Assembly (NCBI GenBank): GCA_964637665.1
Contig: CAZWUX010000005.1
Coordinates: forward strand, 932 to 41,471
Direction: 5' to 3'
Length of the DNA stretch: 40,540 bases
Origin: an uncultured Anaerolineae bacterium
GTDB lineage: Bacteria; Chloroflexota; Anaerolineae; Aggregatilineales; UBA3940
Below, piece by piece: positions 5,462 through 39,107 of this stretch. Positions within the stretch are counted from its first letter, which is position 1. Each line of letters opens with the position of its first letter. The notes below the pieces were generated by a model. The model was not told the origin of the DNA and did not search any database. It saw only the letters and a program-made list of their open reading frames with translations. The position numbers and the translations under genes were made by a program.

Positions 5462-7486
5462 ATGTCATCGTCGCTCATCGGCCAGAAGCTGGGCCAGTAC
5501 GAGATACGCGCGCTGCTGGGGAAGGGCGGCATGTCGACGGTGTATCTCGCCTACCAGCCCGTGATGGACCGCGTCGTGGCGGTGAAGGTGCTGCCCCCCG
5601 AATTTCTGCACGACGAGACGTTCCTCACCCGGTTCCGGCGCGAGATTCAGACCATCGCCAACCTGGAGCACCTGCACATCCTGCCGGTGTATGACGTGGG
5701 CGAGGCGGAGAGTGTGCCCTACTTCGTGATGCGCTATCTGGCGGGCGGCACGCTGGCCGATCTGATCGTCGACCGCCTGCCCGACATGCGGACCGTGCTC
5801 CGCGTGACCGAGCAGATCGCCGGGGCGCTCGACTACGCCCACCAGCGCGGCATCATCCACCGCGACCTCAAGCCGTCGAACATCCTGCTCGACGGGGGCG
5901 GCAACGCCTATCTGGCCGATTTCGGGATCGCGCGCATTCAGGAGGCGGTCAGCGTGACGACCGGCTCCCACGTGATCGGCACGCCGCGCTACGTCGCGCC
6001 GGAGATGGTGCGGCAGGGCGAGAAGATCACCCCGTCCGTCGACGTGTACGCGCTGGGCGTCATCGTCTACGAGATGCTGGCGGGCGAGCCGCCTTACGTC
6101 GACGACGACCCGATGAAGGTGCTCGCGGCCCACGTCATGGAGCCGATCCCCTCGGTGCGGGACTTCGACCCCAACCTCAGCCCGGTGATCGATGTCGTGC
6201 TGCGGCGCTGCCTCGCCAAGCAGCCGCGCGACCGCTACCCGTCGGCGGGCGAGTTCGTGTCCGCGCTGCGCAAGGCATCTCAGGCGGGGTTCGATACGCT
6301 GGAGTCGCTGCCCCCCATCAGCGAGGCGACGCCTTCCCCCGATCGGCCCGATCAGGACTGGACTCCTCACCCCGCCGCAGCGCCGCGTCCACGTCGGCGC
6401 AGGCGGGATGCCCCTGACAGGCCGCGTTTCGGCGGCTGCCTGATCGGGCTGGGAATTTTGCTGGCGTTGATCGTGGGGATGGGGGCCGCCGCCTTCTATC
6501 TGACAGACGGCGCGCCGCTGACACTGCTGGCCGTGCTGACGCCCATCGCAACGCGGCCTGCGACCCCAACCGTCACGCCTGTTGCGATTACGGCGACACC
6601 TCCCCCGTCTAACCAGACGCCATCGCCCTCCGCGCCGCCGATCCTCCCCCTACCTGAATCCGGTGCGCGGCTGGCCTTCGCCTCGAACCGGGACGGCGAT
6701 TACGAAATTTACCTGATGGATATCGACGGCGAAAACCTGACTCAGCTTACCGACAACGGCGTATATGATTTCGACCCGGCCTGGTCGCCCGACGGCAACC
6801 AGATCGTCTATGCGTCGACGGTGGGCGGCGACGCCGAGATCGTGGTGATGGACGCCGACGGCGGAAACGCGCAGGCGCTGACCGAGAACACGGCGCGCGA
6901 CGCCGGCCCGGCTTGGTCGCCGGACGGATCGCGCATCGCCTTCGCGTCCGACCGGGAGGGCAGCTTCGACATCTACCTGATGGACCCCGACGGCGGCAAC
7001 CTCACCCGCCTGACGAGCGACGAGGGCATCGACGAGCTTGACCCGGCGTGGTCGCCGGACGGATCGCAGATCGCCTATTACACTCGTCGGGACGAGGAGG
7101 CCGAGACGACCGAGATATACGTCATTCCGGCGGCGGGCGGGGAGGCGCGGCGCCTGACGGAGAACGGCACCATCGATCAGTGGCCTGACTGGTCGCCAGA
7201 TGAGGGGAATCTGGCTTATACTTCAGGCGAGGGGCTGACGCGTGGGCGGCGGGCCATCTTCGTGCTCGATCTCGCCACGCTGCAAGCCCGCCGGATGACG
7301 GATGGGACGGCCAGAGACGACGACCCGGCGTGGTCGCCGGACGGCAGCGCCATCGCATTCGATTCAGACCGGGACGGAGACGGCTATTTCGACCTCTACG
7401 TGTTGAACACCGGCGCGCGTGAGCTTCGTCAGGTGACGACTGAACAGGCGAACGACGTTGCCCCGGCATGGCAGCCTCTGCCATGA
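5462..7486 (+). CDS. Transmembrane Ser/Thr protein kinase (Hanks type) with extracytoplasmic TolB-like (PD40/WD40-like) beta-propeller
   Basis: GKGGMSTVY G-loop, VAVK (K42), HRDLKPSN (D135), DFG (153-155) and YVAPE. TM helix CLIGLGILLALIVGMGAAAFYL. Five repeats of D/GPAWSPDG..IA/VY/F. Confidence 0.9.
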   Translation: MSSSLIGQKLGQYEIRALLGKGGMSTVYLAYQPVMDRVVAVKVLPPEFLHDETFLTRFRREIQTIANLEHLHILPVYDVGEAESVPYFVMRYLAGGTLADLIVDRLPDMRTVLRVTEQIAGALDYAHQRGIIHRDLKPSNILLDGGGNAYLADFGIARIQEAVSVTTGSHVIGTPRYVAPEMVRQGEKITPSVDVYALGVIVYEMLAGEPPYVDDDPMKVLAAHVMEPIPSVRDFDPNLSPVIDVVLRRCLAKQPRDRYPSAGEFVSALRKASQAGFDTLESLPPISEATPSPDRPDQDWTPHPAAAPRPRRRRRDAPDRPRFGGCLIGLGILLALIVGMGAAAFYLTDGAPLTLLAVLTPIATRPATPTVTPVAITATPPPSNQTPSPSAPPILPLPESGARLAFASNRDGDYEIYLMDIDGENLTQLTDNGVYDFDPAWSPDGNQIVYASTVGGDAEIVVMDADGGNAQALTENTARDAGPAWSPDGSRIAFASDREGSFDIYLMDPDGGNLTRLTSDEGIDELDPAWSPDGSQIAYYTRRDEEAETTEIYVIPAAGGEARRLTENGTIDQWPDWSPDEGNLAYTSGEGLTRGRRAIFVLDLATLQARRMTDGTARDDDPAWSPDGSAIAFDSDRDGDGYFDLYVLNTGARELRQVTTEQANDVAPAWQPLP

Positions 7487-7525
7487 ACTTCAACTGCCGA
7501 CGCCAACCAGCTGGAAAGGACTGTC

Positions 7526-9700
7526 GTGGCTGAAGATACGCTGATCGGTCAGCAGCTCGGCCAGTTTTCGATTGAATATCCCATCCAGCACCTCGACGGT
7601 GCGACGTTTTACCGGGGGTTCCACTCACGGACCGGTGAGGCCGTCGTCGTGACCGTCTATCCGCCGGAACTGATCCCGGATGAGATCGCCGCGCAGCGCT
7701 ACGTCGAGCAGGTGGAGGCGCTGGCCCGGCTGGATCACCCTTACCTTGAGCCGGTGCTGGGCGGCGGGCAGTTCGATGGGCAGCCCTACCTCGTCGGCCC
7801 GCTGATGACCGGTCTGACGCTGGCCGAGCGCATCGAGAACGACGGTCCGCTCACGCCGGAGGCGCTCGTCCCGGTGCTGGAGCGGGTGGCGGATGCCCTC
7901 GACGCGCTGCACGCGCAGGGCGTCACGCACGGCAACGTCTCACCCGATACGATCTTCGAGGCGGGCACCGCCCACGTCCGGCTGGGCGGCCTGCTGCCGG
8001 AGGAGCTGCGGGCGGCCATCGCGGCGCGGGCGGGGCTGCCGGGCGGCGGCGATCCGGCTTATACGGCCCCGGAGATCACGCGCGGGATGCGCAAGACGAC
8101 CCCTGCCACAGACATCTACGCGCTGGGGGCGACGGCCTTCGAGGCGCTGACCGGGCAGCCCCCTTACGGCGGCGACGACCCCATCGAGCAGTTGATGAGC
8201 CATCTGAGCAACCCCGTCCCCTCCCTGATCGAGGTTCTGCCCGACCTGCCCTGGGCGGTCGACGTGGTGATCCGGCGCTCGCTCGCCAAGCGCCCCGCCG
8301 ACCGCTATGCGCAGGCCGGGGATTTCGCCCGCTCATTTGTCACGGCGGCGGAGCTGGCCCCCGGCCCCGACGCAACGCCGATTTTCCCGGAGGGCATGGG
8401 AAGCCCGGCAGCGCCGGGCGGCGGAGAGCCGCCCGAACTTCCCCCACACACGCCGCAGGGCTTCGGGCCGCCGGAGTCCGGGGGGCCGCGCCGGGGACGT
8501 TCCGGGCGGAGGCCGTCACGCCGGAGAGGCGCATCGTGGCCGGTGACCGTGATCACGATGCTCCTGTTCGTCGTGGCCTGGTTCACGGTGGGCGCGCTGA
8601 TCGGCCAGCAGGCGCGCGATCAGGTCGAGCTGCGCCAGATCGCCGCGCTCCGCGCGACGCGGACCCAGCAGGCGGGGACCTTCATGGCGGAGGCGACGGG
8701 CACACAGGCCGGGGTCTACGCAGGGGCGACGGCCACCCGGCAGATGGTCGATATGGCGACGGCGATAGCCGCCCCGGTCGACACCACACCCACGTCCGTG
8801 CCGACCGCTACCCTGACCCCCACGCCGATGCCGACCCCCACGCCGTTTGCGGGCAGTGGTGGGCTGATCGCCTACGTGACCGACCGCGACGGCGACCCGG
8901 AGATCTTCGTCTACGATCTGGCGATCGGCGAGGAAAAGCGCGTCACCGATAATATCGACATCGACGGCGCGCCCGCGTTTTCGCCGGATGGCCGCTTGTT
9001 GGCTTATCACTCCAACGCCACGGCGGGCGGGCGTCACATCTTCCTCGTTGCGATCGAGTGCGTCGACGCGCCGGAGGGATGCGAGAGCACCCGCCGCGAG
9101 CTGACGAGCGGGCCGCGCGTCGACTCGTGGCCCACGTGGTCGCCGGAAGGGGATCGCATCGTGTTCACCTCGCGCGAGAACGAGCGCTGGTGGTTCCGGT
9201 CGGTGACGCTAGCGGGCGAGGAGACGGAGCTTTCCCAGATCGTGGGCGACATGCGGCTGGTCGACTGGTCGCCGGACGGCATCCTGACGTTCTTCGGGCC
9301 GAACTTCGACGGCGGATTCGAGCTTCAACGGCTGCCCTACGACGGCATCTCGACGGAGCGCGAGCCGATCACAGGGTCGGGTGGCTCGATTGAATCCCTC
9401 GACTACTCGCCCGACCGCTCGACGATCATCTACTCGCAGTTGACGGGCGTCTCTCGCCAGTTGTTCATATCGGACGCAAGCTGCAACCTGATCGACCAGT
9501 GCGTGATCCGCCGGATCACGGACGACCGGTGGAACTACCGTATGCCCCGCTTCTCGCCGGACGGGACGCGCATCCTCACCAGCGCGAATTTGGAAGGCGA
9601 CTACTCACTTTATATACTCGATCTGCAAGGCAACGTGCTGGATAAGCTCGTCGGGCTGCCGGAGGATCAACCTCGCGGCGTGTGGCAGCCTGCGCCCTGA
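7526..9700 (+). CDS. Transmembrane pseudokinase paralogue with TolB-like beta-propeller
   Basis: Collinear with the upstream kinase, but the catalytic motifs are changed: G-loop is HLDGATFYR, VAVK is VVVT (T43), HRD is HGN (135-137) and DFG is LGG (153-155). APE is retained (YTAPE). TM helix VTVITMLLFVVAWFTVGALIG. PD40-type repeats FSPDG, WSPEG, WSPDG, YSPDR and FSPDG. GTG start 39 nt after the kinase stop. Confidence 0.85.
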   Translation: MAEDTLIGQQLGQFSIEYPIQHLDGATFYRGFHSRTGEAVVVTVYPPELIPDEIAAQRYVEQVEALARLDHPYLEPVLGGGQFDGQPYLVGPLMTGLTLAERIENDGPLTPEALVPVLERVADALDALHAQGVTHGNVSPDTIFEAGTAHVRLGGLLPEELRAAIAARAGLPGGGDPAYTAPEITRGMRKTTPATDIYALGATAFEALTGQPPYGGDDPIEQLMSHLSNPVPSLIEVLPDLPWAVDVVIRRSLAKRPADRYAQAGDFARSFVTAAELAPGPDATPIFPEGMGSPAAPGGGEPPELPPHTPQGFGPPESGGPRRGRSGRRPSRRRGASWPVTVITMLLFVVAWFTVGALIGQQARDQVELRQIAALRATRTQQAGTFMAEATGTQAGVYAGATATRQMVDMATAIAAPVDTTPTSVPTATLTPTPMPTPTPFAGSGGLIAYVTDRDGDPEIFVYDLAIGEEKRVTDNIDIDGAPAFSPDGRLLAYHSNATAGGRHIFLVAIECVDAPEGCESTRRELTSGPRVDSWPTWSPEGDRIVFTSRENERWWFRSVTLAGEETELSQIVGDMRLVDWSPDGILTFFGPNFDGGFELQRLPYDGISTEREPITGSGGSIESLDYSPDRSTIIYSQLTGVSRQLFISDASCNLIDQCVIRRITDDRWNYRMPRFSPDGTRILTSANLEGDYSLYILDLQGNVLDKLVGLPEDQPRGVWQPAP

Positions 9701-9720: not shown

Positions 9721-12051
9721 ATGCCATCCATCCGAATATTGTTTAAGCTGTTCTGGGACGATCTGCGCGACGATCTGCCGAGCCTGCTGCTGGTGGGCTT
9801 ATTGCTGCTCGTCGCGGCGTGGTCGGTCGTGGCTGCCGGGTGGGTCGAGGGGATCGGCCTGCTGCCTGCCGTCGTGCTGATCGGCCTGCTGATGGGCTAC
9901 CTGCTCGCCGTATCCCACTTCTCCGAATTATCCTCGCTCATCGCGTCGCTCGTATACGGCTGGTTCACGGTGTGGGCGCTGGCCGGGCGGCTTATCCCTG
10001 AGGCGGAGACCTTCCGTGAGCGCCTGCTTGAGCTGAACTTCCGCTTCGCAACGTGGGTCGAGCAGGCGCTGGGGGGCGGCTTCAGCCGGGATAACCTGAT
10101 CTTCCTGCTGCTCGTCTGTCTGCTGGGCTGGTATCTCAGCTTCAACGCGGCGTGGGCGCTGTTCCGGCGTCGGCGGCTGTGGCAGGCGACGGTGCCTATC
10201 GGGCTGGCGATGCTGATCAACGCCTACCAGATCGTCGGCCCGCTGCCCGTCGATCTCTATTTGATGATCTTCCTGCTGCTGACGCTGCTGCTCGCCGTCC
10301 GCACGAACGCCGTCAGCCGGGAACAGGTATGGCAGCACGCCGGGGCGGGGTTCAGACCGGATGCCCGCTTCGCGCTGTTCCGGGGTGGGGTGGCCGCCGT
10401 GATCGTGCTGCTGGCGCTGGCGTGGGTCACGCCCAAAGCGTCGGCCAACGAGGAGCTTGCCGCACTGTGGGAGGAACCACAGGGCCCCTGGTCGACGGTC
10501 GAGAAGACGTTCCAGCGTTTGTTCAACGCCGTCGAGAGTCAGGCCCCGCCAGCGGCCTCGTATTACGGCGGCGCGACGCTCTCGATGGGCGGGCCGATCC
10601 ACCTGAGCGATACCCCGGTCATGACCGTCTTCGCGCCGGGCGGCTACCGCTACTACTGGCGCTCGCGCGTGTTCGACACGTACACAGACGGTCAGTGGTG
10701 GGCGCGGCCCGATTCCCGGTCCGCATCCGACTTCGGCATCTTGCCGCAGGAGTCGAGCGAGGCCCCGCTGCTCCGGCGCAACGTCCAGCAGCGGTTCGTG
10801 TTGAGCCTGCCCTCGACGCGGCTGCTCTACGCGGCCCCCCAGCCCCAGTCCTTCGCGTCTCTCCCGGTGACGGCGGAGGTGATCTACACGACGCCCGGCA
10901 GCGACTTTGCGACGGTGTCTGCTGTTCAGGCCCGCAATACGCTGGAAGCGGGCGATGTCTACGGCGTCACGTCCGCGATCAGCATCGCCGATGAACTCAG
11001 CCTGCGTCAGGCCGGGACCAGCTACCCCGCCTGGGTCACGGATCACTACCTCGATCTGCCCCCGAACATCACCACCCGCACGCAGGACCTGGCCGCCGAG
11101 ATCGCCGTCGAAGCGGAGAACCCCTACGACGCCGCGCGGGCGGTCGAGACGTACCTGCGGGAGAATATCGCCTACAACGAGGCGGTTCAGCCCCCGCCGG
11201 AGGACGCGGAGCCGGTCGATTACGTGCTGTTCGAATCGCGGGAGGGCTACTGCACGTACTATGCCTCGGCCATGACCGTCATGCTGCGCTCGCTGGACAT
11301 CCCTGCGCGGATGGTGGCGGGGTTCTCGCAGGGCACGTTCGACCCGGAGCTGAACGGCTTCGTCGTGCTCGAATCGGACGCGCACACATGGGTGCAGGTC
11401 TACTTCCCCCGCTATGGCTGGATCGACTTCGAGCCGACGGCGGCGCGCGCGCCCATTGTGCGGCAGGAGCAGCTCAGCCTCGACGACCTGACGACGCCTG
11501 AGGAAACCGGCGCGATCCCTGAGGCGGCGGAGCCGGACGACGAGGGCAGCGGGATCGTCCTTGAGGATCGGGGGCAGGCGGGCTTCCAGGCTTCCCAGTT
11601 TGCGGAAAAGGGTGCCTTCTCGTGGATTCCGCCGCTGCTGCGCTGGCTCGTGCTGCTCGTGCTGCTCGCGGCGGGCGTTGTGGCCGGGCTGTGGTACTGG
11701 CGCATGGAGAGCGGTCTGCGCGGCCTCGGCGATGTGGCGCGGGGCTATGCCCGGCTGAACATCTTCGCACCCTGGCTGGGCGTCGACCTCTCGCAGAGCG
11801 ATACGCCCCACGAGCGCGTGCGGGCGTACCGGCAGGTTATCCCGGAGAGCGAAGGCCCGGTGCGGCGCATCGTCGATTTATACGTCGAGGAACAGTACAC
11901 GGAAGACCATCTGGGACAGCGCACGCTCGACGCCTACCGCCAGGCTCGCGACGCGTGGGACGAGGTGCGGAAGCGCGTGCTGCGGCTGGGGCTTCTCCGG
12001 CGCATCGGTCGGATGAACCCCTTCCGCGACCGGGACACGACGATCCGTTAG
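9721..12051 (+). CDS. Transglutaminase-like (TgpA-type) polytopic membrane protein
   Basis: N-terminal multi-TM region, then a transglutaminase core EGYCTYYASAMTVMLRSLDIPARMVAGF ... DAHTWVQVYFPRYGWIDFEPT (Cys-His-Asp triad context), then a further TM and a C-terminal helical domain. Starts 20 nt after the pseudokinase stop. Confidence 0.85.
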   Translation: MPSIRILFKLFWDDLRDDLPSLLLVGLLLLVAAWSVVAAGWVEGIGLLPAVVLIGLLMGYLLAVSHFSELSSLIASLVYGWFTVWALAGRLIPEAETFRERLLELNFRFATWVEQALGGGFSRDNLIFLLLVCLLGWYLSFNAAWALFRRRRLWQATVPIGLAMLINAYQIVGPLPVDLYLMIFLLLTLLLAVRTNAVSREQVWQHAGAGFRPDARFALFRGGVAAVIVLLALAWVTPKASANEELAALWEEPQGPWSTVEKTFQRLFNAVESQAPPAASYYGGATLSMGGPIHLSDTPVMTVFAPGGYRYYWRSRVFDTYTDGQWWARPDSRSASDFGILPQESSEAPLLRRNVQQRFVLSLPSTRLLYAAPQPQSFASLPVTAEVIYTTPGSDFATVSAVQARNTLEAGDVYGVTSAISIADELSLRQAGTSYPAWVTDHYLDLPPNITTRTQDLAAEIAVEAENPYDAARAVETYLRENIAYNEAVQPPPEDAEPVDYVLFESREGYCTYYASAMTVMLRSLDIPARMVAGFSQGTFDPELNGFVVLESDAHTWVQVYFPRYGWIDFEPTAARAPIVRQEQLSLDDLTTPEETGAIPEAAEPDDEGSGIVLEDRGQAGFQASQFAEKGAFSWIPPLLRWLVLLVLLAAGVVAGLWYWRMESGLRGLGDVARGYARLNIFAPWLGVDLSQSDTPHERVRAYRQVIPESEGPVRRIVDLYVEEQYTEDHLGQRTLDAYRQARDAWDEVRKRVLRLGLLRRIGRMNPFRDRDTTIR

Positions 12052-19161: not shown

Positions 19162-20592
19162 ATGACGATCCGCTTTGGAACGGACGGATGGCGCGCGGTC
19201 ATCTCCGAGACGTTCACCTTTGCCAATCTGCGCCTGCTCGCGCAGGCGATTGCCGACCTGATTCTGGAGGAGAACGACGACGGCGAGCACCACGCCGTCG
19301 TCGGGTTCGATACGCGCTTCCTCTCCGACCGCTACGGGCACGAGGTCGCCCGCGTGCTGGCCGGGAACGGCATCCGCGTGCTGCTCACATCCTCCGATGC
19401 GCCTACGCCCGCCGTCTCGTACACGGTGAAGAACACCGGCGCGGCAGCCGGGGTCATGATCACGGCCAGCCACAACGCGCCGCGCTACAACGGCGTGAAG
19501 CTCAAAGCGGCGTTTGGCGGGGCCGCCCTGCCGGATCAGGGCCGCCGGGTGGAGGTCCACCTGCGCGACAACGAGGAACGGGCGCGCGGCCCCAACCTGA
19601 TCGACTTCACCTTCGCCGAGAATCAGGGCTTGATCGAGCTTTTCAACCCCGCACCCGCCTACTACGCTCACCTGCGCACGCTCGTCGACCTCGACGCGAT
19701 CTGTCAGGCGGACCTCGGCGTGATCCACGATCCGATGTACGGGTCGGGCCGGGGGTACATTAAGGCGCTGCTGGGCGGCGTCGGCTGCCAGGTCCACGAG
19801 GTCCGGGGCGAGATGAATCCCGGCTTCGGCGGCATCCACCCGGAGCCGCTGGGTAAGTACCTCGCCGCGCTGGCCGCCGCGCTCCAGTCCGGGTTCGGGT
19901 CGGTCGGCATCGCGACGGACGGCGACGCGGATCGCATCGGCGCGATGGACGGCACGGGCCGCTTCGTCGATCCGCACCGCATCTTCGCGCTGGTCCTGAA
20001 ATACCTCGTCGAGGAACGCGGGCAGACCGGCTGCGTCGTGCGCACCGTCTCGACGACCCGCATGATCGACCGGCTGTGCCAGCGCTACGGGCTCGATCTG
20101 CACGAGACGCCCGTCGGCTTCAACCACATCGCCGATATCATGCTGACCGAGGACGTGCTGATCGGCGGTGAGGAGTCGGGCGGCATGAGCGTCAAGGGCC
20201 ATATCCCGGAGGGGGACGGCATCCTGATGGGTCTGCTGCTGCTTGAGGTGATCGCCAAATCCGGCAAGCCGCTCGAAGCGCTGGTGGATGAGCTTGAAGC
20301 GGATGTCGGCCCGGCGCACTACGCCCGCACCGATCTGCGCCTCAGCCGTCCGGTGATCAAGGCAGAGATGGTCCGACAGCTTTCTGAGGATGCGCCGGAT
20401 AAGATCGCCGGGGTCGGCGTGGCCGAGGTGTCGACCATCGACGGAGTGAAATACATCATGGCCGACGATAGCTGGCTGTTGATCCGCCCCAGCGGCACCG
20501 AGCCGGTGCTGCGCGTGTACGCCGAGGCGACGAACGAGGCGCTCCGCGCGGGATTACTGGCCTACGGACAGGAGATCGCGGAATCGGTGTAG
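19162..20592 (+). CDS. Phosphoglucomutase/phosphomannomutase family protein
   Basis: Active-site TASHNAPRYNGVK, metal loop DGDADR and sugar loop GGEESGG. GGAGG upstream of the ATG. Confidence 0.9.
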   Translation: MTIRFGTDGWRAVISETFTFANLRLLAQAIADLILEENDDGEHHAVVGFDTRFLSDRYGHEVARVLAGNGIRVLLTSSDAPTPAVSYTVKNTGAAAGVMITASHNAPRYNGVKLKAAFGGAALPDQGRRVEVHLRDNEERARGPNLIDFTFAENQGLIELFNPAPAYYAHLRTLVDLDAICQADLGVIHDPMYGSGRGYIKALLGGVGCQVHEVRGEMNPGFGGIHPEPLGKYLAALAAALQSGFGSVGIATDGDADRIGAMDGTGRFVDPHRIFALVLKYLVEERGQTGCVVRTVSTTRMIDRLCQRYGLDLHETPVGFNHIADIMLTEDVLIGGEESGGMSVKGHIPEGDGILMGLLLLEVIAKSGKPLEALVDELEADVGPAHYARTDLRLSRPVIKAEMVRQLSEDAPDKIAGVGVAEVSTIDGVKYIMADDSWLLIRPSGTEPVLRVYAEATNEALRAGLLAYGQEIAESV

Positions 20593-20614
20593 CAGATTCT
20601 CATCCGGTTTCACA

Positions 20615-20642
20615 CGCTCCGCATTCGTGCGGGGCGTTTTTT
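20615..20642 (+). terminator. Rho-independent terminator of the PGM/PMM gene
   Basis: CGCTCCGCA-ttcg-TGCGGGGCG followed by TTTTTT. Confidence 0.8.
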
Positions 20643-22419
20643 GTATGTGACAATACTTATATAGGAACTAAAAACAATGGTATATAATGAGTCTTAACCC
20701 ATTACCCGGCAGCTTAACAGGTGTACGAAAATGAAGAGCCAGCGCAGCGATACTCAGATTATACATACAAAGTCAGGCCAGCCGCGTTTTGTTATCCATG
20801 TGAGCCACAAGGGACTCAATCAATATCAGGCGATACGTGCAACCAGTCGCTTTGAGGCAGAGCAAAAAGCTCTGGCAAAGATGGCCCAGTGGGATCAAAT
20901 GTGGGAACGTAAGCAGAAGACCGAACAAAAGAAAGAAACCATAGAGAATAAGAAGGAACTAGCCGCGGATCGAACTGAAGCTGCACAAAAGAGTCTTCAT
21001 GACCTGGAGACGCTTCTAGTCGATGGCTTGAACCCACACAACCCGCTTCCCCGCCCGGAAGAACCAAAATTACCTATCGGGCCAGTTCATCCGGCTATTC
21101 CCTCCGAACCCAAGCTCACAGATCCGGCTTACAACGTTGAACTCACATTTGTGCAAAAAGTGCTGGAAGCTCTCATACCTCCCCGGAAAGAATCGAGGGA
21201 AAGCGAGCTGAAGGTTCGCTATGAACGAGATCACGCGAAATGGGCAAAGGAAAGACAGGTGATGCTTTCTGAGTATGAAGCGCGCCTAGCCCAGCAGAAG
21301 AAGCGTGTTCAGCAGTTGAAAGCACAGCATCAGAAAGAGATAGCGGGCTGGGAGAAACTCCTAGAAGACTACCGGGCAGGGAAGTCCAACGCTGTTCTTC
21401 AATATTGTCTGGCCGTGCTGGCTAAGTCGAGCTACCCGACGCAGTTTCCACCGTCCCGCAAACTCCATTACAACGCCAACACAAAAATGCTCGTCATAGA
21501 TTATCAATTTCCCGCGCCGGATGATTTGCCCACCTTGAAGGAAGTAAGGTATATCCAGTCACGAGATGAGTTTGACGAAAAACACATCAGTGATGCCGAG
21601 CTACGAAGAAGATATGACCAGGTCTTATATCAAATAGCGCTCCGTACGCTCTACGAATTATTCAAGCTGGACGATGCCGAAGTTATCGATGCAATTGTCT
21701 TTCACGGATTAGTTGAATCAATCGATCCATCGACGGGACAAGAGGTGTATGCGTGCGTCTTATCTGTGATGACGAAAAAAGATGAGTTCATGCAAATAAA
21801 CTTGGAGAACGTCGATCCCAAGGCGTGCTTCAAGAAACTCAAGGGGGTTGGTAGTTCAAAGCTGCACAGTCTAACCCCAATTGCTCCTGTCTTAGTCTTG
21901 AATAGGGAGGACAAACGCTTTATCGAAGGGTATAAGGTGGTGGATGGCTTGCAAGAGGGCGATAACCTTGCGGCGATGGATTGGGAGGATTTTGAGCACC
22001 TCGTCCGTGAGTTATTCGAGAAAGAGTTTTCAGGACCGAACAGTGAGGTAAAGGTGACTCGTGCCAGCCGTGATGGCGGCATCGACGCCGTCGTGTTCGA
22101 TCCTGATCCCCTGCATGGGGGCAAAGTGGTTATTCAGGCCAAGCGATACACCAATACGGTGGGGGTTTCCGCCGTTAGAGACTTATATGGCTCTGTTATG
22201 AATGAGGGGGCTAACAAGGGCATACTGGTCACGACATCAGATTATGGCCCTGATGCCCATCAGTTTGCAAAGGACAAACCGCTCGTGCTGCTGAGCGGCA
22301 GCAATCTCCTTCATCTACTCCAAAAACATGGGCATAAAGCCTATATTGATCTAAAAGAGGCAAAGTCCATTCTCGCAGAGGATAAATAGCGAGGTTCGTG
22401 TTGCCGAATCACCCCATAA
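20643..22419. other. Low-G+C single-gene islet between convergent housekeeping genes
   Basis: Two 60-nt samples inside it that I counted by hand gave 48 % and 52 % G+C. A 60-nt sample at the 3' end of nfi gave 67 %. AT-rich upstream region carries TGgTATATAAT (20679-20689). Confidence 0.6.
20731..22389 (+). CDS. 552-aa fusion protein: Lys/Glu/Gln-rich coiled-coil-like N-terminus, uncharacterised middle domain, C-terminal Mrr-type (PD-(D/E)xK, Mrr_cat) restriction endonuclease domain
   Basis: The C-terminus DWEDFEHLVRELFEKEF...SRDGGIDAVVFD...KVVIQAKRYTNTVGVSAVRDLYGSV...GILVTTSDYGPDA matches the Mrr catalytic-domain pattern (D ... Q/E-x-K). AGGTG lies 8 nt before the ATG. Confidence 0.8.
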   Translation: MKSQRSDTQIIHTKSGQPRFVIHVSHKGLNQYQAIRATSRFEAEQKALAKMAQWDQMWERKQKTEQKKETIENKKELAADRTEAAQKSLHDLETLLVDGLNPHNPLPRPEEPKLPIGPVHPAIPSEPKLTDPAYNVELTFVQKVLEALIPPRKESRESELKVRYERDHAKWAKERQVMLSEYEARLAQQKKRVQQLKAQHQKEIAGWEKLLEDYRAGKSNAVLQYCLAVLAKSSYPTQFPPSRKLHYNANTKMLVIDYQFPAPDDLPTLKEVRYIQSRDEFDEKHISDAELRRRYDQVLYQIALRTLYELFKLDDAEVIDAIVFHGLVESIDPSTGQEVYACVLSVMTKKDEFMQINLENVDPKACFKKLKGVGSSKLHSLTPIAPVLVLNREDKRFIEGYKVVDGLQEGDNLAAMDWEDFEHLVRELFEKEFSGPNSEVKVTRASRDGGIDAVVFDPDPLHGGKVVIQAKRYTNTVGVSAVRDLYGSVMNEGANKGILVTTSDYGPDAHQFAKDKPLVLLSGSNLLHLLQKHGHKAYIDLKEAKSILAEDK

Positions 22420-33455: not shown

Positions 33456-34139
33456 GTGACGGTGTCGGCCACCGATTTTTCGCTCTCGGAGCGGCTGTCT
33501 CAACATCCGTATTTTCGCAACCTTGCCCCCGGCGGCGTCGAGCTGCTCGCCTCGTCGGCGCTGCGCCGCCGTTTTGCGGCGGGCGAAGTGCTCTTTCTGG
33601 AGGGCGATCCGTCCGCCGGGCTGTGGGTCGTCGAGCGGGGGCGGATCAAGGTCTACAAGCTGCACGTCGAGGGGCGCGAGCACATCCTCCACCTGTTCGG
33701 CCCCGGCGATTCGTTCAACGAGGTCGCCGCGCTCGACGGCGGCCCGAATCCGGCCAACGCGGGCGCGCTCAGCGATGCGGTCGTCTGGGTCGTGCCCGCC
33801 GACGTGATTCAGTCGATGCTGGCGCGCGATCCGTCGCTGGCGCAGGCCGTGATTCACGGGATGAGCGAGCGGATGCGAATGCTCGTCCAGCAGATCGAAG
33901 CCCTCGCCCTGTACGCCGTGCAGGCGCGGCTCGCCCGCTTCCTGATTGACCGGTCGGAGGACCCGGCGCTCGAAGGGCCGGGCATCACCCGCGCGGCGAT
34001 TGCCGCCCACCTCGCCACCACGCCCGAAACCGTCAGCCGGGCGCTGCGCGCGCTGGAGGAGGCCGGGGCGATCCGCTTCGACCGCCACCGTATTGTGATC
34101 GTTGACCTCGACCTGCTGCGCAGCCTCGCCCTGCTGTAG
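33456..34139 (+). CDS. Crp/Fnr family transcriptional regulator, without the FNR N-terminal Cys cluster (Dnr/NnrR-like class by that criterion)
   Basis: cNMP-binding-type beta-roll (FLEGDPSAGLWVVERGRIKVY) and C-terminal HTH ITRAAIAAHLATTPETVSRALRALEEAGAI with the E--SR recognition motif. There are no cysteines anywhere in the 227-aa protein. Confidence 0.9.
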   Translation: MTVSATDFSLSERLSQHPYFRNLAPGGVELLASSALRRRFAAGEVLFLEGDPSAGLWVVERGRIKVYKLHVEGREHILHLFGPGDSFNEVAALDGGPNPANAGALSDAVVWVVPADVIQSMLARDPSLAQAVIHGMSERMRMLVQQIEALALYAVQARLARFLIDRSEDPALEGPGITRAAIAAHLATTPETVSRALRALEEAGAIRFDRHRIVIVDLDLLRSLALL

Positions 34140-34248: not shown

Positions 34249-34262
34249 TTGATCTGGATCAA
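34249..34262 (+). promoter_or_regulatory. Perfect FNR/Dnr-type box TTGAT-N4-ATCAA
   Basis: TTGATCTGGATCAA is centred 56.5 nt upstream of the ferredoxin ATG. A TATCCT -10-like hexamer at 34285-34290 fits a class II (-41.5) arrangement. Confidence 0.65.
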
Positions 34263-34311: not shown

Positions 34312-34542
34312 ATGGCACAACCATTTGACCGTGCGTGGCTGCCCATCATCGACGGCACGCGCTGCGAGGGGTGCGGCGACTGCGTGGCGGCCTGTCCGGC
34401 GGGCGCGCTGGCATTGGTGGAGGGGCGGGCCGCGCTCATCCATCCGGCTGACTGCACCTACTGCACGGCCTGCGAAGACCTCTGCCCGAACGGCGCGATT
34501 GCGCTTCCCTTCCTGATTTGCCGGGGGGACGCGGAGACGTGA
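34312..34542 (+). CDS. 2x[4Fe-4S] ferredoxin (76 aa)
   Basis: CEGCGDCVAACP and CTYCTACEDLCP. Confidence 0.9.
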   Translation: MAQPFDRAWLPIIDGTRCEGCGDCVAACPAGALALVEGRAALIHPADCTYCTACEDLCPNGAIALPFLICRGDAET

Positions 34543-35055: not shown

Positions 35056-35460
35056 ATGCCGCGCCTCAGCACGTGGATGGTGCGCGTGGCGCTCGTCCAC
35101 TTCGGCCTCGGATTCACGTTCGGCGCGCTGATGCTGTGGAACAAAGGACTGCCGGTGTCGGGCGCGCTGTGGCGGCTGCTGCCTCTCCACACCGAGCTGG
35201 TTCTCATGGGCTGGACCGTTCAGCTTGCGATGGGCGTCGCGTTCTGGATTCTGCCGCGCTTCTCCGGCAGGCGTCCGCGTGCGTGGCTGGCATGGCTGGC
35301 CTTCGGGCTGCTGAACGCGGGCGTGCTGAGCGTCTGTGCCGGGCGCTGGTGGCCTGAGGTGGGCGGGCTCATCGCGGTTGGCCGGATCGTCGAAGCGCTG
35401 GGTGTGGCAGCCTTCGCTGCGCACGCATGGTCACGCGTCAAGTCGCCGGGCGCGCGGTGA
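35056..35460 (+). CDS. Four-helix integral membrane protein, unknown family (paralogue B)
   Basis: Its ATG directly abuts the stop of paralogue A (TAGATG). It carries the same motif set (LHTELVLMGWTVQLAMGVAFWILPRFSGRRPR, LLNAGVL, EALGVAAFAAHAWSRVK). Confidence 0.6.
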   Translation: MPRLSTWMVRVALVHFGLGFTFGALMLWNKGLPVSGALWRLLPLHTELVLMGWTVQLAMGVAFWILPRFSGRRPRAWLAWLAFGLLNAGVLSVCAGRWWPEVGGLIAVGRIVEALGVAAFAAHAWSRVKSPGAR

Positions 35461-35494
35461 TAGATCGATGGATGGACTGAAAGGGGGGAGCCTC

Positions 35495-36448
35495 ATGCTC
35501 GGCTCATTGGCGGATACAAATTTTGCGGAAGAGCTGCTGGCCGTGCAGGCGCGAAGCTGGCCCTCGTGGGAGCTGGCCGGTCTGCGCCCCACGCCGGAGG
35601 AAACCTGGGAGCGCTTGCGTGTGTTCCTCAAATTCGGTCAGGACGACCGGGCGGCGATGCTCCAAACCGTCGAGCCGCTTCTCAAGCGGGCGCACGAGCT
35701 TGTCGTCAGCAACTACGATCACCTCCTGTCCGACGAGGGCGCAGCGGCGGTTCTTGGCTGGGAGGAGGGCCCCGACCCGGCTCACCTCGCCGAGCGCCGC
35801 CAGTTTTTCACAGTGTGGATCGCCCGCACGCTCGGCATGGACCTGAGCGACGATTTCGCCCGCTACCTGTTCCGGGCGGGCCGGATGCACGCCGCCCACG
35901 GCCCGCGCGAGGTCCACGTCCCGGAGTTGTACGTCACCGGGGCGATCAGCCTCGTCCACGCGGCGTTCGCGCGCTTTCTGGCCGAGGAGATGCCGGGTGC
36001 GCCCGTCGTGCCGCCCGCGCTGGCAGGCTGGAATAAGATGTTGGCGATGCACCTTCAAATGATGCTCGACGGCTACCACGCGGCGCGCGACGTGGATCGG
36101 GGCGATTTCGCCGTCCCGGTCAGGTTGTTCGGGCTGGTGCGGGCGGCGGCAGGCCGCAGTGAGCTGCCCATCGCCGTTCCGATCGGCGCGACGGTGGCGG
36201 ACGTGCTGCGCAAGTTCTTCAACTACTATCCTCACATCCGGGGCCTCGTGCTTGAGAAGCGCGAAAGGGAGGCCGATCAGCCGGAGGGTGTCGGCACGCC
36301 CTGGGTCACGCTCGACCGGGTTTACGTCGTGCGGAATCACCCGGCGTGGCGAGTCCTGCTTAACGGGCGCAACGTCGCGCACCTCGGCGGGCCGGACGTT
36401 TCCGTGTCCGAGGGGGATGACCTCCAGCTGTTCTCGCCCGGACGCTAG
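35495..36448 (+). CDS. Protoglobin (globin-coupled-sensor-type haem domain) fused to a C-terminal MoaD/ThiS-like beta-grasp domain that lacks the terminal Gly-Gly
   Basis: The N-terminal part aligns by eye with Methanosarcina protoglobin as I remember it (..VSNYDHLL.., ERRQFFTVWIARTL, FRAGRMHAAHG with a candidate proximal His, YVTGAISLV, WNKMLAMHLQMMLDGY). The C-terminal VRLFGLVRAAAGRSELPIAVPIGATVADVLRKFFNYYP...VLLNGRNVAHLGGPDVSVSEGDDLQLFSPGR follows the MoaD pattern (V.FFA.vRe..G......tV..L......P....avN...v.....l.dGDEvAffPPvtGG) but ends in PGR. The start is either the ATG at 35495 (GGGGGAG upstream) or the ATG at 35468. Confidence 0.8.
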   Translation: MLGSLADTNFAEELLAVQARSWPSWELAGLRPTPEETWERLRVFLKFGQDDRAAMLQTVEPLLKRAHELVVSNYDHLLSDEGAAAVLGWEEGPDPAHLAERRQFFTVWIARTLGMDLSDDFARYLFRAGRMHAAHGPREVHVPELYVTGAISLVHAAFARFLAEEMPGAPVVPPALAGWNKMLAMHLQMMLDGYHAARDVDRGDFAVPVRLFGLVRAAAGRSELPIAVPIGATVADVLRKFFNYYPHIRGLVLEKREREADQPEGVGTPWVTLDRVYVVRNHPAWRVLLNGRNVAHLGGPDVSVSEGDDLQLFSPGR

Positions 36449-36484: not shown

Positions 36485-36817
36485 ATGGACCCCTATACCT
36501 ATCTAGCCGATCTGCCGGGGATGCTGCCCGGCGTGCCTCAGGACAGCATCCTCAGCCGGACGGTGTTCGCCGACGGCCAGATGAAGACCGTGCTGTTCCG
36601 GTTTGCCGCGGGCGAGGAGCTTTCCGAGCACACGTCGACCCAGACGGCGGTTCTGTATTTCGTCGAGGGCGAGGCCAGCGTGACGCTGGCCGGGGATGAG
36701 GTCGAGGCCCGGCCCGGTACGTGGATTCACATGCAGCCGCGTCTGGAGCACAGCATCCGGGCGCGCACCCCGGTCACGATGCTGCTGATGATGATCCAGC
36801 CGCTCGAAGGCGAGTAG
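36485..36817 (+). CDS. Cupin-domain protein (110 aa)
   Basis: Cupin_2-like GEELSEHTS...YFVEGEA...G.......PGTWIHMQPRLEHSIRA. Confidence 0.75.
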   Translation: MDPYTYLADLPGMLPGVPQDSILSRTVFADGQMKTVLFRFAAGEELSEHTSTQTAVLYFVEGEASVTLAGDEVEARPGTWIHMQPRLEHSIRARTPVTMLLMMIQPLEGE

Positions 36818-36906: not shown

Positions 36907-38196
36907 ATGGAACATGATGCCAACGAGAACGATCGCGGATCGCTGCGCGTGCTGATCGTCGGGCTGGTGGCGGTGGTCGCCGTCATCGGCCTGGCGCTCG
37001 TCGTGGGTGCGGTCGGCACGGGCCTGGGCCGCGCGGAGCAGGGCCGGGTGGACGCGCTGGCGAACAGCCGCAACGACTGTGTGACGTGCCACCGCCGCGA
37101 GACGCCCGGCATTGTCGCGCAGTACGGGGCCAGCACGATGGCCGCCGCCGAGGTGGTCTGCCAGGACTGCCACGAGGTCGCAGCGGACTACCCCGGCGCG
37201 GTCGAGCACGAAGGCACCTACGTGCTGCCCATGCCGACGACCGCCATGTGCTCGGAGTGCCACGCGGCGGAGGTCGCCCAGTTCAACCGGAGCCGCCACG
37301 GGCTGCCCGCCTACGTCGCCTACGCCGGGACCGAGGGCCTGTCGGACGAGCACCTTGCCTTTTATCAGAGCATCACCGAGGCCGATCCACCTCCCAACCC
37401 GGAGCGCAACGCCCTGTTCGCGCTCGAAGGCGAGGAGATCACCCAATTTGCTTGTGAGCAGTGCCACGACGTGGGCAAACCAGCAGCAGACGGCTCGGTG
37501 GGCGACTGCACGAAGTGCCACCTGCGCCACGAGTTCAGCCTGTCGCAGGTCCGCAAGCCGGAGACGTGCAACTACTGCCATATCGGCCCCGATCATCCGC
37601 AGTATGAGATCTACGTCGAGTCGCCGCACGGCATCGCCTACGCGACGGGCGGCGATACGTGGAACTGGGAGGCCGAACCCGGCACGCTGACGGTCGAGGA
37701 TTTCCCGGCCCCGACGTGCGCCACCTGCCATATCAGCGGGTTCGGCACGCAGGCCACGACGCACGACGTGGGCGAGCGCCTGACGTGGTATCTGTTCTCA
37801 CCGGTCAGCGAGCGCCGCCCATCGTGGCAGGATAACCGGCTGCGGATGCAGGGTGTGTGCTTCGAGTGCCACAATCAGGATTTCGTCGAGGACTACTACG
37901 ACAACGGCGATCTCGCCGTCGAGCACGTCAACGAGTGGGTGCTGGAGAGCCAGTCGATCACGCAGCCGCTCGCCGAAAACGGCCTGCTCACCGACGAGCC
38001 ATTCGACGAGCCAATCGATTTCACGTCGTTTAACCTGTGGCATCACTGGGGCCGCACGGCCAAGTTCGGCGTGTGGATGCAGGGGCCGGACTACACCCAG
38101 TGGCACGGCGCTTATGAGGTGCTGCACGACCTCGCGGAGCTTCGCGAGATGACGGACGAGAAACTCTCGGAGGCCGGGATCGAGGCAGGGCGGTAG
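36907..38196 (+). CDS. Octahaem cytochrome c of the hydroxylamine oxidoreductase (HAO) family, with N-terminal TM/signal anchor
   Basis: Eight CxxCH motifs (CVTCH, CQDCH, CSECH, CEQCH, CTKCH, CNYCH, CATCH, CFECH). CTKCHLRHEFSLSQVRKPETCNYCHIGPDHPQYEIYVESPHG closely parallels N. europaea HAO [42 protein letters not shown] (from memory). Hydrophobic segment LRVLIVGLVAVVAVIGLALVVGAVG. Confidence 0.9.
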   Translation: MEHDANENDRGSLRVLIVGLVAVVAVIGLALVVGAVGTGLGRAEQGRVDALANSRNDCVTCHRRETPGIVAQYGASTMAAAEVVCQDCHEVAADYPGAVEHEGTYVLPMPTTAMCSECHAAEVAQFNRSRHGLPAYVAYAGTEGLSDEHLAFYQSITEADPPPNPERNALFALEGEEITQFACEQCHDVGKPAADGSVGDCTKCHLRHEFSLSQVRKPETCNYCHIGPDHPQYEIYVESPHGIAYATGGDTWNWEAEPGTLTVEDFPAPTCATCHISGFGTQATTHDVGERLTWYLFSPVSERRPSWQDNRLRMQGVCFECHNQDFVEDYYDNGDLAVEHVNEWVLESQSITQPLAENGLLTDEPFDEPIDFTSFNLWHHWGRTAKFGVWMQGPDYTQWHGAYEVLHDLAELREMTDEKLSEAGIEAGR

Positions 38197-38198
38197 CC

Positions 38199-39107
38199 AT
38201 GTACCATCTGGCAACGCTCTACCCACCGGTCAGACGGGTCAGGCTGCCACTGAGCCGCGATCAGTTGATGCTGCTCATGGCGGCGATCAACGAGATATTC
38301 CTCGGCGTCGACATCTATCTGGCGCACAGCATCAGCGGGACCATCGTGCCCAACGAGTGGATTCCCATCATCTTCGGTCCGCTCGCCGGGGCGCTGCTGC
38401 TCATCGCCGGGTTGATCGCGATCCGCCGCCGTTCGCTGGCGACGGTTATCGCCAACGTCGTGTTTGTGGCGAGCATCGCCGTCGGCCTGCTCGGCGCGTA
38501 CTTCCACTGGCTGCGGGCCGTGCGCCCATTTGCCCCGCCCGGCGAGCGCCTGACCGTGACCCTGCTGATCTGGGCGCCGCCCGTGATCGGCCCCCTGATG
38601 TTCGCGATGGTCGGCTGGCTGGGCATCAGCGCGGCATGGGTCGAGAACCCGCCGGGCAGCGGCAGGCTCGTCCTGCTTGGCAACCGGACGCTCAATCTGC
38701 CCTACAGCAAGACGCGCGCCTACTTCTTCATCGTCGGGCTGGGCACGCTTGCCACCGTGCTGAGCAGCGTGCTCGATCACGCCCGCGCCGGTTTCGCCAA
38801 CCCCTGGCTGTGGCTGCCGACCGCCGCCGGGGTGTTCGGGACCGCCGTCGCGCTGACGCTCGGCACGATCCGGCGGCCCACCCCCACCGACCTCGCCACC
38901 TACGCGGGGGCGATGGTCCTGCTGATCCTCGTCGGCGTCGTGGGGGCGGCCCTGCACGTCAACGACAGCCTGACGAGCCGGGGCGTGTTCGTCGCCGAGC
39001 GGTTCATACGCGGCGCACCGGTCCTCGCCCCGCTACTGTTCGCCAACATGGGGGTGCTGGGGCTGATCGCGCTGCTCGATCCACGCGAATCACCCCCCGG
39101 ATCGTAG
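38199..39107 (+). CDS. Polytopic (about 8 TM) membrane protein with internal 2 x 4-TM duplication and four positionally conserved His; unknown family
   Basis: The ATG lies 2 nt after the HAO-like stop. Matched halves: YLAHS / VLDHA, GAYFHW / GAALHV and APPVIGPLMFAMVGWLG / GAPVLAPLLFANMGVLG. Confidence 0.7.
   Translation: MYHLATLYPPVRRVRLPLSRDQLMLLMAAINEIFLGVDIYLAHSISGTIVPNEWIPIIFGPLAGALLLIAGLIAIRRRSLATVIANVVFVASIAVGLLGAYFHWLRAVRPFAPPGERLTVTLLIWAPPVIGPLMFAMVGWLGISAAWVENPPGSGRLVLLGNRTLNLPYSKTRAYFFIVGLGTLATVLSSVLDHARAGFANPWLWLPTAAGVFGTAVALTLGTIRRPTPTDLATYAGAMVLLILVGVVGAALHVNDSLTSRGVFVAERFIRGAPVLAPLLFANMGVLGLIALLDPRESPPGS

Follow-up and report, generated by a model that had tools for sequence, protein, structure and literature searches.

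We analysed a 40,540-nt stretch of contig CAZWUX010000005.1 (hereafter the window) from an uncultured Anaerolineae bacterium and found that one of its genes (Table 1) encodes a two-domain protein, in which a globin of the type found in globin-coupled sensors is followed directly by a MoaD/SAMP1-type ubiquitin-like (Ubl) beta-grasp domain that ends in Pro-Gly-Arg rather than in Gly-Gly. In the reading that we favour, to which we assign a probability of about 0.45, the protein would be a globin-coupled sensor that detects O2/NO through haem in the cytoplasm, with non-covalent partner binding by the inactivated Ubl domain as its output.

Domain architecture of the fusion protein

The open reading frame (ORF) that ends at 36448 has three candidate starts, GTG at 35336 and ATG at 35468 and 35495. 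The longer frames were dropped because a Shine-Dalgarno-like element, AAAGGGGGGAG (35480-35490), precedes ATG 35495, a protein identical to the 317-aa product exists in the public protein collection (P0001), and the N-termini of homologues differ before Trp25; the gene limits given in an initial annotation, which had been made from the DNA letters alone, were thus correct. The protein sequence contains no signal peptide and no membrane segment, and the product is therefore predicted to be cytoplasmic. A full-length AlphaFold2 model was built on a 106-sequence alignment, from which residue conservation was also derived. The model (mean predicted local distance difference test score (pLDDT) of 91.5, predicted template-modelling score (pTM) of 0.87) places helices at residues 34-201 and the beta-grasp at residues 205-313, leaving only three residues between the last helix and the beta-grasp. 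A pTM of 0.87 for a two-domain chain points to a fixed domain arrangement, and the model implies that the globin and the beta-grasp are rigidly joined.

The N-terminal domain matched the Pfam Protoglobin model PF11563 (E 7.5e-12, 46 bits against a cutoff of 25, residues 37-197), as did all 28 of the family members tested. In Foldseek comparisons with the PDB, the closest structure was the globin domain of AfGcHK (5ohe/5ohf), with a template-modelling (TM) score of 0.89, a root-mean-square deviation of 2.0 A and 23% identity, followed by the Geobacter globin-coupled sensor (GsGCS), HemAT, BpeGReg, and DosC (TM 0.78-0.85), with the Methanosarcina and Aeropyrum protoglobins scoring lower (TM 0.67-0.77). 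These results bear out the haem-type globin that had been read from the N-terminal sequence. Its designation as a protoglobin holds at the level of the Pfam family, but the predicted structure is nearer to the globin-coupled-sensor domains (TM 0.81-0.89) than to MaPgb (TM ~0.73, with values of 0.71-0.77). In the N-terminal-domain profile alignment, His132, the first His of the MHAAHG motif and the proximal ligand proposed earlier, corresponds to His99 of AfGcHK, and Tyr74 corresponds to Tyr45, which we take to be the proximal and distal haem residues of AfGcHK, respectively. Both residues are invariant among the 106 family members, and His132 lies at the end of a modelled helix spanning residues 119-132; from the fold and the ligand residues, the globin is predicted to bind haem. 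In contrast to AfGcHK, where the alignment has a five-residue gap, the family carries an insertion after the proximal F8 position with invariant His135, Gly136, and Arg138 (n = 106). A divergent fusion member from the representative library (P0127) has Tyr in place of the proximal His and Asp in place of His135, and its sequence suggests that it may bind no haem or coordinate it through other ligands.

The C-terminal domain reached the cutoff of the Pfam ThiS model PF02597 exactly (E 1.7e-4, 22.5 bits against a cutoff of 22.5, residues 209-315), and the same model matched 24 of the 28 tested family members at E<=0.01. A profile of this domain retrieved from the PDB the HVO_2177 protein (2m19, 6e-10), SAMP1 of M. 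acetivorans (2l52, 6e-9), the MoaD-related protein of T. thermophilus (1v8c, 3e-7), and the P. furiosus protein 1vjk (1e-5), and Foldseek placed the isolated beta-grasp model with SAMP1, MoaD, Urm1, and CysO (TM 0.80-0.86), so that the MoaD/ThiS-like fold suggested for this part of the protein was recovered by both routes. With the archaeal-type and AOR-linked MoaD proteins and SAMP1 (TIGR01687; 1vjk, 1v8c, H. volcanii SAMP1, and HVO_2177) the domain shares both the fold and the ...VLLNGR...GD.I.IFPP motif, but it differs from them in its position behind a globin, in a hairpin insertion, and in the replacement of xxGG by PGR. Scores with the NCBIfam models for archaeal-type MoaD (TIGR01687, 30.5 bits against a cutoff of 49.5) and SAMP1 (NF041918, 43 bits against 60) stayed below cutoff, and the protein thus has neither a SAMP1-level score nor the diglycine that characterize SAMP/Ubl modifiers. 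The beta-grasp profile covers only residues ~1-85 of the 168 residues of 1v8c, which we presume to be the origin of the DUF1952 family (PF09189); from this partial match, the T. thermophilus protein appears to be a ThiS-DUF1952 fusion. The hairpin insertion amounts to ~17-30 aa relative to related proteins (a 17-residue gap against M. acetivorans SAMP1, 2l52), with strands modelled at residues 253-260 and 272-279.

In the C-terminal tail ...LFSPGR, the conserved Pro-Pro, which is Ser-Pro in the window, is followed by two residues, Gly-Arg, whereas MoaD/SAMP relatives have four residues after this motif and end in Gly-Gly, making the fusion tail two residues shorter. Tails of the best 120 homologues follow the pattern [FY][PS]P[GA]R, with PGR in 119, PAR in one, and GG in none, and Arg317 is invariant. 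PGR is likewise found in essentially all of the 80 genomic copies described below, the lone exception (locus L020) running off a contig end. Since the tail is short, invariant and devoid of Gly-Gly, and given the established chemistry of MoaD, ThiS, and Ubl proteins, canonical thiocarboxylation or conjugation is very unlikely; the initial annotation had already called it unlikely from the PGR terminus. Mean column identity is 65% for the beta-grasp and 71% for the globin. The beta-grasp is thus conserved about as well as the globin, which argues for a working domain under purifying selection rather than a decaying relic. No cofactor motif and no conserved cysteine were found in the beta-grasp sequence.

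Globin-coupled sensors are known to carry MCP, GGDEF/EAL, kinase, or STAS domains as outputs. The fusion protein resembles AfGcHK, HemAT, EcDosC, and BpeGReg in having an N-terminal globin that matches the Protoglobin model and contains proximal His and distal Tyr residues, and in having its C-terminal domain directly after the H helix, but its MoaD/SAMP1-type beta-grasp lies outside these recognised output classes. The protoglobins of Methanosarcina acetivorans and Aeropyrum pernix belong to the same Pfam family and share the 3-on-3 fold with a pre-A helix; in contrast to the fusion protein they are single-domain proteins, and they are structurally less similar to it than the sensor domains are. 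We class the protein with the globin-coupled sensors; it is neither a MoaD nor a protoglobin in the strict sense.

Family distribution and genomic context

A homologue search of 5.8 billion protein clusters, in which 8000 candidates were scored, identified at least 532 clusters with the fusion among those scored; the best 120 homologues have 289-329 aa, a single architecture, and 54-87% identity. A scan of 185,579 species, with one genome per species, found a relative of the fusion in 193 genomes, and all locus counts given below refer to the best 80 of these. The 80 genomes are all metagenome-assembled genomes (MAGs) of Chloroflexota, save one Deinococcales MAG. The family is almost entirely confined to Anaerolineae, and the Chloroflexota carriers among the 80 include Caldilineaceae, Anaerolineaceae, Ardenticatenaceae, Promineifilaceae, and Aggregatilineales. 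Database entries bear the names 'protoglobin domain-containing protein', 'hypothetical protein', or 'molybdopterin converting factor small subunit', and precomputed Pfam annotation assigns ThiS to only about one-fifth of the best 120 homologues. In a search of 1.84 billion representatives with the beta-grasp profile, the hairpin-plus-PGR form occurred only in the globin fusion, and the next relatives were ordinary MoaD/SAMP proteins of ~92 aa ending in PPVGGG. Short matches that might have been stand-alone copies of this form, or copies attached to other sensors, turned out to be N-terminally truncated fusion fragments. In one locus (L080) the fusion belongs to a 645-aa ORF (6942-8879) with ~350 open codons upstream; no extra Pfam domain was found there, and the upstream frame is probably untranslated. 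A 285-aa ORF lies on the strand opposite to it.

Literature searches combining protoglobin or globin with MoaD, nosZ, Chloroflexi, Anaerolineae, or the product name returned no description of this architecture. Two surveys of prokaryotic Ubl proteins (PMC1779556 and PMC2948915) describe AOR-linked MoaD genes, and the word 'globin' was not found in the text of the former. The earlier suggestion that the fusion is undescribed therefore stands as far as these searches go, but the family is not rare and already carries generic annotation. New is the recognition of its architecture, its dead tail, and its two genomic contexts; the sequence itself was already in the databases.

To describe these contexts, we clustered all ORFs of the 80 species loci (8-kb flanks) together with those of the window and annotated the recurrent clusters. 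In 46 of the loci the flanks extend for 3 kb or more to either side. Of these well-flanked loci, 25 contain N-oxide respiration genes, 15 contain genes for aldehyde:ferredoxin oxidoreductase (AFOR), ThiS, DUF1952, or MoeA, one contains both (L053), and five contain neither, so that ~90% fall into one or other of the two contexts. Loci of the two contexts are intermixed when the fusion proteins are arranged in a neighbour-joining tree; neither context is simply an accident of synteny peculiar to one lineage.

The usual gene order of the N-oxide type is Crp/Fnr, ferredoxin, NosZ, a 230-aa membrane protein, NosD, ABC ATPase, ABC permease, NosL, cytochrome c, cupin, fusion, a second cupin, a 380-aa membrane protein, and two COX1-like proteins. 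NosZ is of the Sec-type (clade II; TIGR04246, 865 bits against a cutoff of 625). The 230-aa membrane protein, which has no Pfam or NCBIfam match, is called NosB by its position only, and the ABC ATPase and permease are called NosF and NosY by position and reading of the sequence alone. In the subclade of the window, a HAO/HDH-like octahaem cytochrome and a membrane protein of ~300 aa stand in place of the nos genes, and the two are always paired (window 36907-39107, L085 8222-10470, L086 4453-6672). A copper nitrite reductase, NirK, is encoded upstream, beside the pair, in L086 (TIGR02376, 333 bits against a cutoff of 296). A 617-aa cytochrome c/cupredoxin/beta-propeller protein with a precomputed Cytochrom_D1 Pfam match is encoded beside the pair in L085; it gave no NCBIfam NirS match and was not called NirS. 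No recognisable NO reductase gene was found in the N-oxide clusters that contain the fusion. The COX1-like pair is present in 17 of the 80 loci and in L085 and L086. Ferredoxin likewise occurs in 17 of the 80, and a Crp gene within 8 kb in 19. Cupin genes, among the commonest immediate neighbours of the fusion gene, occur in 29 loci, invariably in the same orientation as the fusion gene and separated from it by a median of ~20 nt, and directly flank it in 13.

The 380-aa membrane protein (cluster c9, e.g. L068 9405-10544), a polytopic protein of ~380 aa encoded after the cupin in 23 of the 80 loci and absent from the window, has the motifs HGPLM..GF and H..F.GF..MIF.HAPI.FP with conserved His. 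It has no Pfam or NCBIfam match, and its more than 4800 homologues are all named 'hypothetical'; an NnrS-like identity is an unsupported guess.

The second context, the AOR-linked MoaD/tungsten-cofactor cluster, comprises a MoaD/ThiS gene, DUF1952, AFOR, and sometimes MoeA in at least four gene orders, with AFOR in 22 of the 80 loci. About one-third of the fusion genes adjoin the AOR-linked MoaD gene, DUF1952, and AFOR, and AFOR is the direct neighbour, on the opposite strand, in 11 loci. Downstream of the fusion gene in L004 lie two moeA genes and genes for an ABC transporter of the tungstate/molybdate type, and L053 combines octahaem, Crp, and cupin genes with MoeA. Whereas MoeA, ThiS, DUF1952, and AFOR recur, MoeB, MoaE, and ThiF were not found among the recurrent neighbours within the 8-kb flanks. 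The neighbouring AOR-linked MoaD genes (cluster c4, loci L007-L081, e.g. L035 3614-3892), each followed by a separate DUF1952 gene, encode proteins with the tail FPPVGGG, many of which continue past GGG for one or two residues (R, V, IV, QS, L, or A); this implies that the C-terminus may be trimmed before use.

In the window, the genes for the ferredoxin, two COX1-like proteins, the fusion, the cupin, the octahaem cytochrome, and the membrane protein form a co-directional string (Table 1), in which no convincing internal terminators were found. The FNR-type box between the gene for the cysteine-free Crp/Fnr protein and the ferredoxin gene is unique in the 40.5-kb window with one mismatch allowed (0.29 expected by chance). 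Rieske, cytochrome c, and CcmE genes flank this island.

Functional interpretation

According to the sensor reading, O2 and/or NO would bind to a haem held by His132 on the proximal and faced by Tyr74 on the distal side, ligand binding would alter how the beta-grasp, held rigidly against the globin and bearing the conserved hairpin and the PGR tail, is presented, and the beta-grasp would then bind or release a partner protein non-covalently. The transmitter would be an inactivated, non-enzymatic MoaD-type Ubl domain derived from AOR-linked MoaD genes. The outcome would be the tuning of O2/NO-sensitive anaerobic modules, namely N-oxide respiration (nos, nirK, HAO-like octahaem) and maturation of tungsten/molybdopterin enzymes. 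We favour this reading because the globin, with its conserved proximal His and distal Tyr, has its nearest structural relatives among established sensor domains (AfGcHK, TM 0.89), because the beta-grasp is conserved like the globin and has no GG, cofactor motif, or conserved cysteine, because its hairpin-plus-PGR form was found only in the fusion, because the domain arrangement is predicted to be fixed and the hairpin is confidently modelled only when the globin is present, because 41 of the 46 well-flanked loci lie in N-oxide or AFOR modules interleaved on the tree, and because the window's eight-gene co-directional operon is preceded by a Crp/Fnr gene and a perfect FNR-type box. The sensor's output would work through contacts between proteins rather than through catalysis, as in sensors of the GCS-STAS/RsbR type with their partner-switching logic. 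The initial annotation had likewise suggested that the beta-grasp may serve protein interaction, and the gene context narrows the likely setting of a partner to N-oxide respiration clusters and AOR/tungsten-cofactor clusters. H-NOX and NosP are likewise small cytoplasmic haem proteins encoded in NO-related operons and presumed to bind partners, but their folds are unrelated and their partner is a recognisable kinase or cyclase, none of which is encoded near the fusion.

Several points weigh against a sensor. Five of the 46 well-flanked loci and the Deinococcales copy have unrelated neighbours, and in two of the loci of neither class (L084 and L025) no partner gene travels with the fusion; no single neighbour is common to both contexts, and the gene context yields no identified partner. 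Eight perfect FNR boxes were found in the other loci (~1 Mb), none of them within 350 bp of a fusion gene, which rules out the box as a general feature upstream of the fusion and makes that of the window a local observation. Packing of the hairpin on the globin is only weakly hinted at by the models, since the comparison of its pLDDT (44-57 in the beta-grasp-alone model, 70-92 in the full-length model; 79 and 85 for the tail) is confounded by alignment depth (25 and 106 sequences, respectively). To our knowledge, there is no precedent for a beta-grasp Ubl domain as a sensor output. Finally, the haem ligands fit a catalytic or scavenging globin equally well.

Such a catalytic or scavenging globin is the main rival explanation, although we consider it fairly unlikely. 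The protein would consume NO or O2 as an NO dioxygenase, NO reductase, or O2 scavenger, with the beta-grasp docking an electron donor such as ferredoxin, and would thereby protect or complement the denitrification enzymes and the oxygen-labile tungsten AFOR. Single-domain globins are established NO detoxifiers, and the gene lies amid NO-producing (NirK, cd1-like) and N2O-consuming (NosZ) functions where no NO reductase is recognisable. The 2x[4Fe-4S] ferredoxin and the ferredoxin-reducing AFOR, at the frequencies given above, could supply electrons under this explanation, and the occurrence of the fusion as a solitary gene in some loci would fit a self-sufficient protein. Less probably, the protein could form, together with the ferredoxin, the COX1-like pair, and the cupin, an unrecognised NO-handling module that bridges NirK/cd1-like proteins and NosZ in Chloroflexota. 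However, the nearest structures are sensor domains rather than flavohaemoglobin or single-domain NO-detoxifying globins. In contrast to flavohaemoglobin NO dioxygenase, the fusion has no FAD/NAD(P)H reductase module; its only other domain is the beta-grasp, which has no redox cofactor motif, and we know of no MoaD-type beta-grasp that serves as a ferredoxin-docking module.

A more specific form of the sensor reading, quite improbable in our estimate, is a gas-gated mimic of MoaD, in which the dead Ubl domain would take the place of MoaD at its binding site on MoeB, MoaE, MoeA, or the DUF1952 partner of the AOR-linked MoaD and couple Mo/W-cofactor synthesis to O2/NO. We give similarly little weight to the wider form of such a 'dead ubiquitin-like' switch, in which O2 or NO at the haem would govern whether the Ubl domain plugs the MoaD-binding site of a molybdopterin/tungsten-cofactor protein or binds the cupin, DUF1952, or Crp, so that cofactor maturation and N-oxide respiration would both respond to the gas. 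The mimic would link the two contexts, as the molybdopterin/tungsten cofactor is required by nitrate reductase as well as by AFOR. It agrees with the beta-grasp relationships, since the closest relatives of the domain are the neighbouring AOR-linked MoaD proteins (E 4e-15 to 3.5e-8, tails FPPVGGG[R]) and the apparent ThiS-DUF1952 fusion 1v8c is also close. It agrees as well with the adjacency of the fusion gene to ThiS, DUF1952, AFOR, and MoeA in several gene orders, with the moeA-moeA-transporter string of L004, and with the octahaem/Crp/cupin genes beside MoeA in L053. The AOR-linked MoaD cluster has been defined as a tungsten-cofactor module (Iyer et al., 2006; PMC1779556). On the other hand, over half of the loci lack any Mo/W-cofactor gene in their 8-kb flanks, MoeB and MoaE were not found among the recurrent neighbours there, and NosZ, NirK, and HAO-like enzymes use no molybdopterin.

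A genuine sulfur carrier or modifier, in which Arg would be trimmed and the glycine adenylated and then thiocarboxylated or conjugated with the globin as cargo, is essentially excluded. Trimming may occur in the neighbouring AOR-linked MoaD proteins, which often extend one or two residues, including R, beyond GGG; in the fusion, however, it would leave ...PPG, with a single glycine and with two to three residues missing from the tail. In addition, Arg317 does not vary, in contrast to the changing extra residues of those MoaD proteins, no E1-like or JAMM gene recurs within the 8-kb flanks, and the NCBIfam SAMP1 and moaD_arch scores are below cutoff. Equally untenable is an assembly or gene-calling artefact joining two genes, as every one of the 120 best homologues and of the 80 species genomes, each assembled independently, shows the uninterrupted architecture and the H helix runs straight into the first beta-strand of the high-confidence model.

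What protoglobins and many sensor globins do in the cell is poorly understood, and few output types are known for globin-coupled sensors. A sensor function of the fusion family would add to these an output of another kind, a ubiquitin-like domain whose chemistry is lost but whose sequence is still strongly conserved. The family is found in two testable settings, the N2O/nitrite/NO respiration clusters of Anaerolineae and the tungsten-enzyme/cofactor cluster. If correct, the sensor reading would reveal O2 or NO sensing around N2O reduction in Anaerolineae, which are abundant in wastewater and sediments and whose clade II NosZ matters to N2O emissions, and would show that a sulfur-carrier Ubl domain has been reused as a signalling module.

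Features of the window

The positions of the fusion gene, its predicted functional elements, and the neighbouring genes are listed in Table 1.

Table 1. Coordinates of the fusion gene, its domains and residues, and its operon in the window
Feature	Position	Strand	Basis or remark
Crp/Fnr-family regulator, cysteine-free, upstream of the operon	33456..34139	+	Pfam cNMP_binding and HTH_Crp_2
Perfect FNR/CRP-type box TTGATCTGGATCAA (TTGAT-N4-ATCAA)	34249..34262	+	50 bp upstream of the ferredoxin gene
2x[4Fe-4S] ferredoxin, first gene of the operon	34312..34542	+	Pfam Fer4
Two tandem COX1-like membrane proteins of ~134 aa	34654..35055, 35056..35460	+	Pfam COX1 below cutoff
Sensor-globin/MoaD-like fusion gene	35495..36448	+	ORF and translation, 317 aa plus stop (36446-36448)
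Sensor (S-family) globin domain, residues ~34-201	35594..36097	+	PF11563, AlphaFold2 helices, Foldseek to AfGcHK
Tyr74 codon, predicted distal B10 tyrosine	35714..35716	+	Invariant (n = 106), aligned with AfGcHK Tyr45
His132 codon, predicted proximal (F8) haem ligand	35888..35890	+	Invariant (n = 106), aligned with AfGcHK His99
Family-specific five-residue insertion after F8 (A-H135-G136-P-R138)	35894..35908	+	Gap in AfGcHK alignment
MoaD/SAMP1-type beta-grasp, residues 203-317	36101..36445	+	Pfam, NCBIfam, PDB profile, Foldseek
Beta-hairpin insertion, residues ~253-285, conserved G-T-P-W	36251..36349	+	Gap against SAMP1, AlphaFold2 strands
C-terminal Pro-Gly-Arg replacing xxGly-Gly	36437..36445	+	P315 and R317 invariant, G316 at least 90% (n = 106)
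Cupin, 110 aa, 36 nt downstream of the fusion gene	36485..36817	+	Pfam Cupin_2
HAO/HDH-like octahaem cytochrome c	36907..38196	+	Multi-haem_cyto 1.4e-32, eight CxxCH
Membrane protein, 302 aa, paired with the octahaem cytochrome	38199..39107	+	Syntenic in L085 and L086

The 302-aa membrane protein has no homology to the 380-aa proteins encoded after the cupin in other loci, and its assignment to that cluster was rejected. The two COX1-like proteins, each of four helices with a His in the region of the second, resemble helices I-III of haem-copper oxidase subunit I; their COX1 scores of 24 and 32 bits are below cutoff, and neither has a Pfam or NCBIfam match above it.

Elsewhere in the window, a low-GC island at 20001-22400 (0.53, compared with ~0.66 elsewhere) encodes a protein of 552 aa whose C-terminal domain is an Mrr-type restriction endonuclease, and the island may have been acquired horizontally. 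Two adjacent genes (5462-7486 and 7526-9700) encode Ser/Thr protein kinases fused to PD40 beta-propeller repeats, and are followed by a gene for a transglutaminase-like TgpA-type protein (9721-12051).

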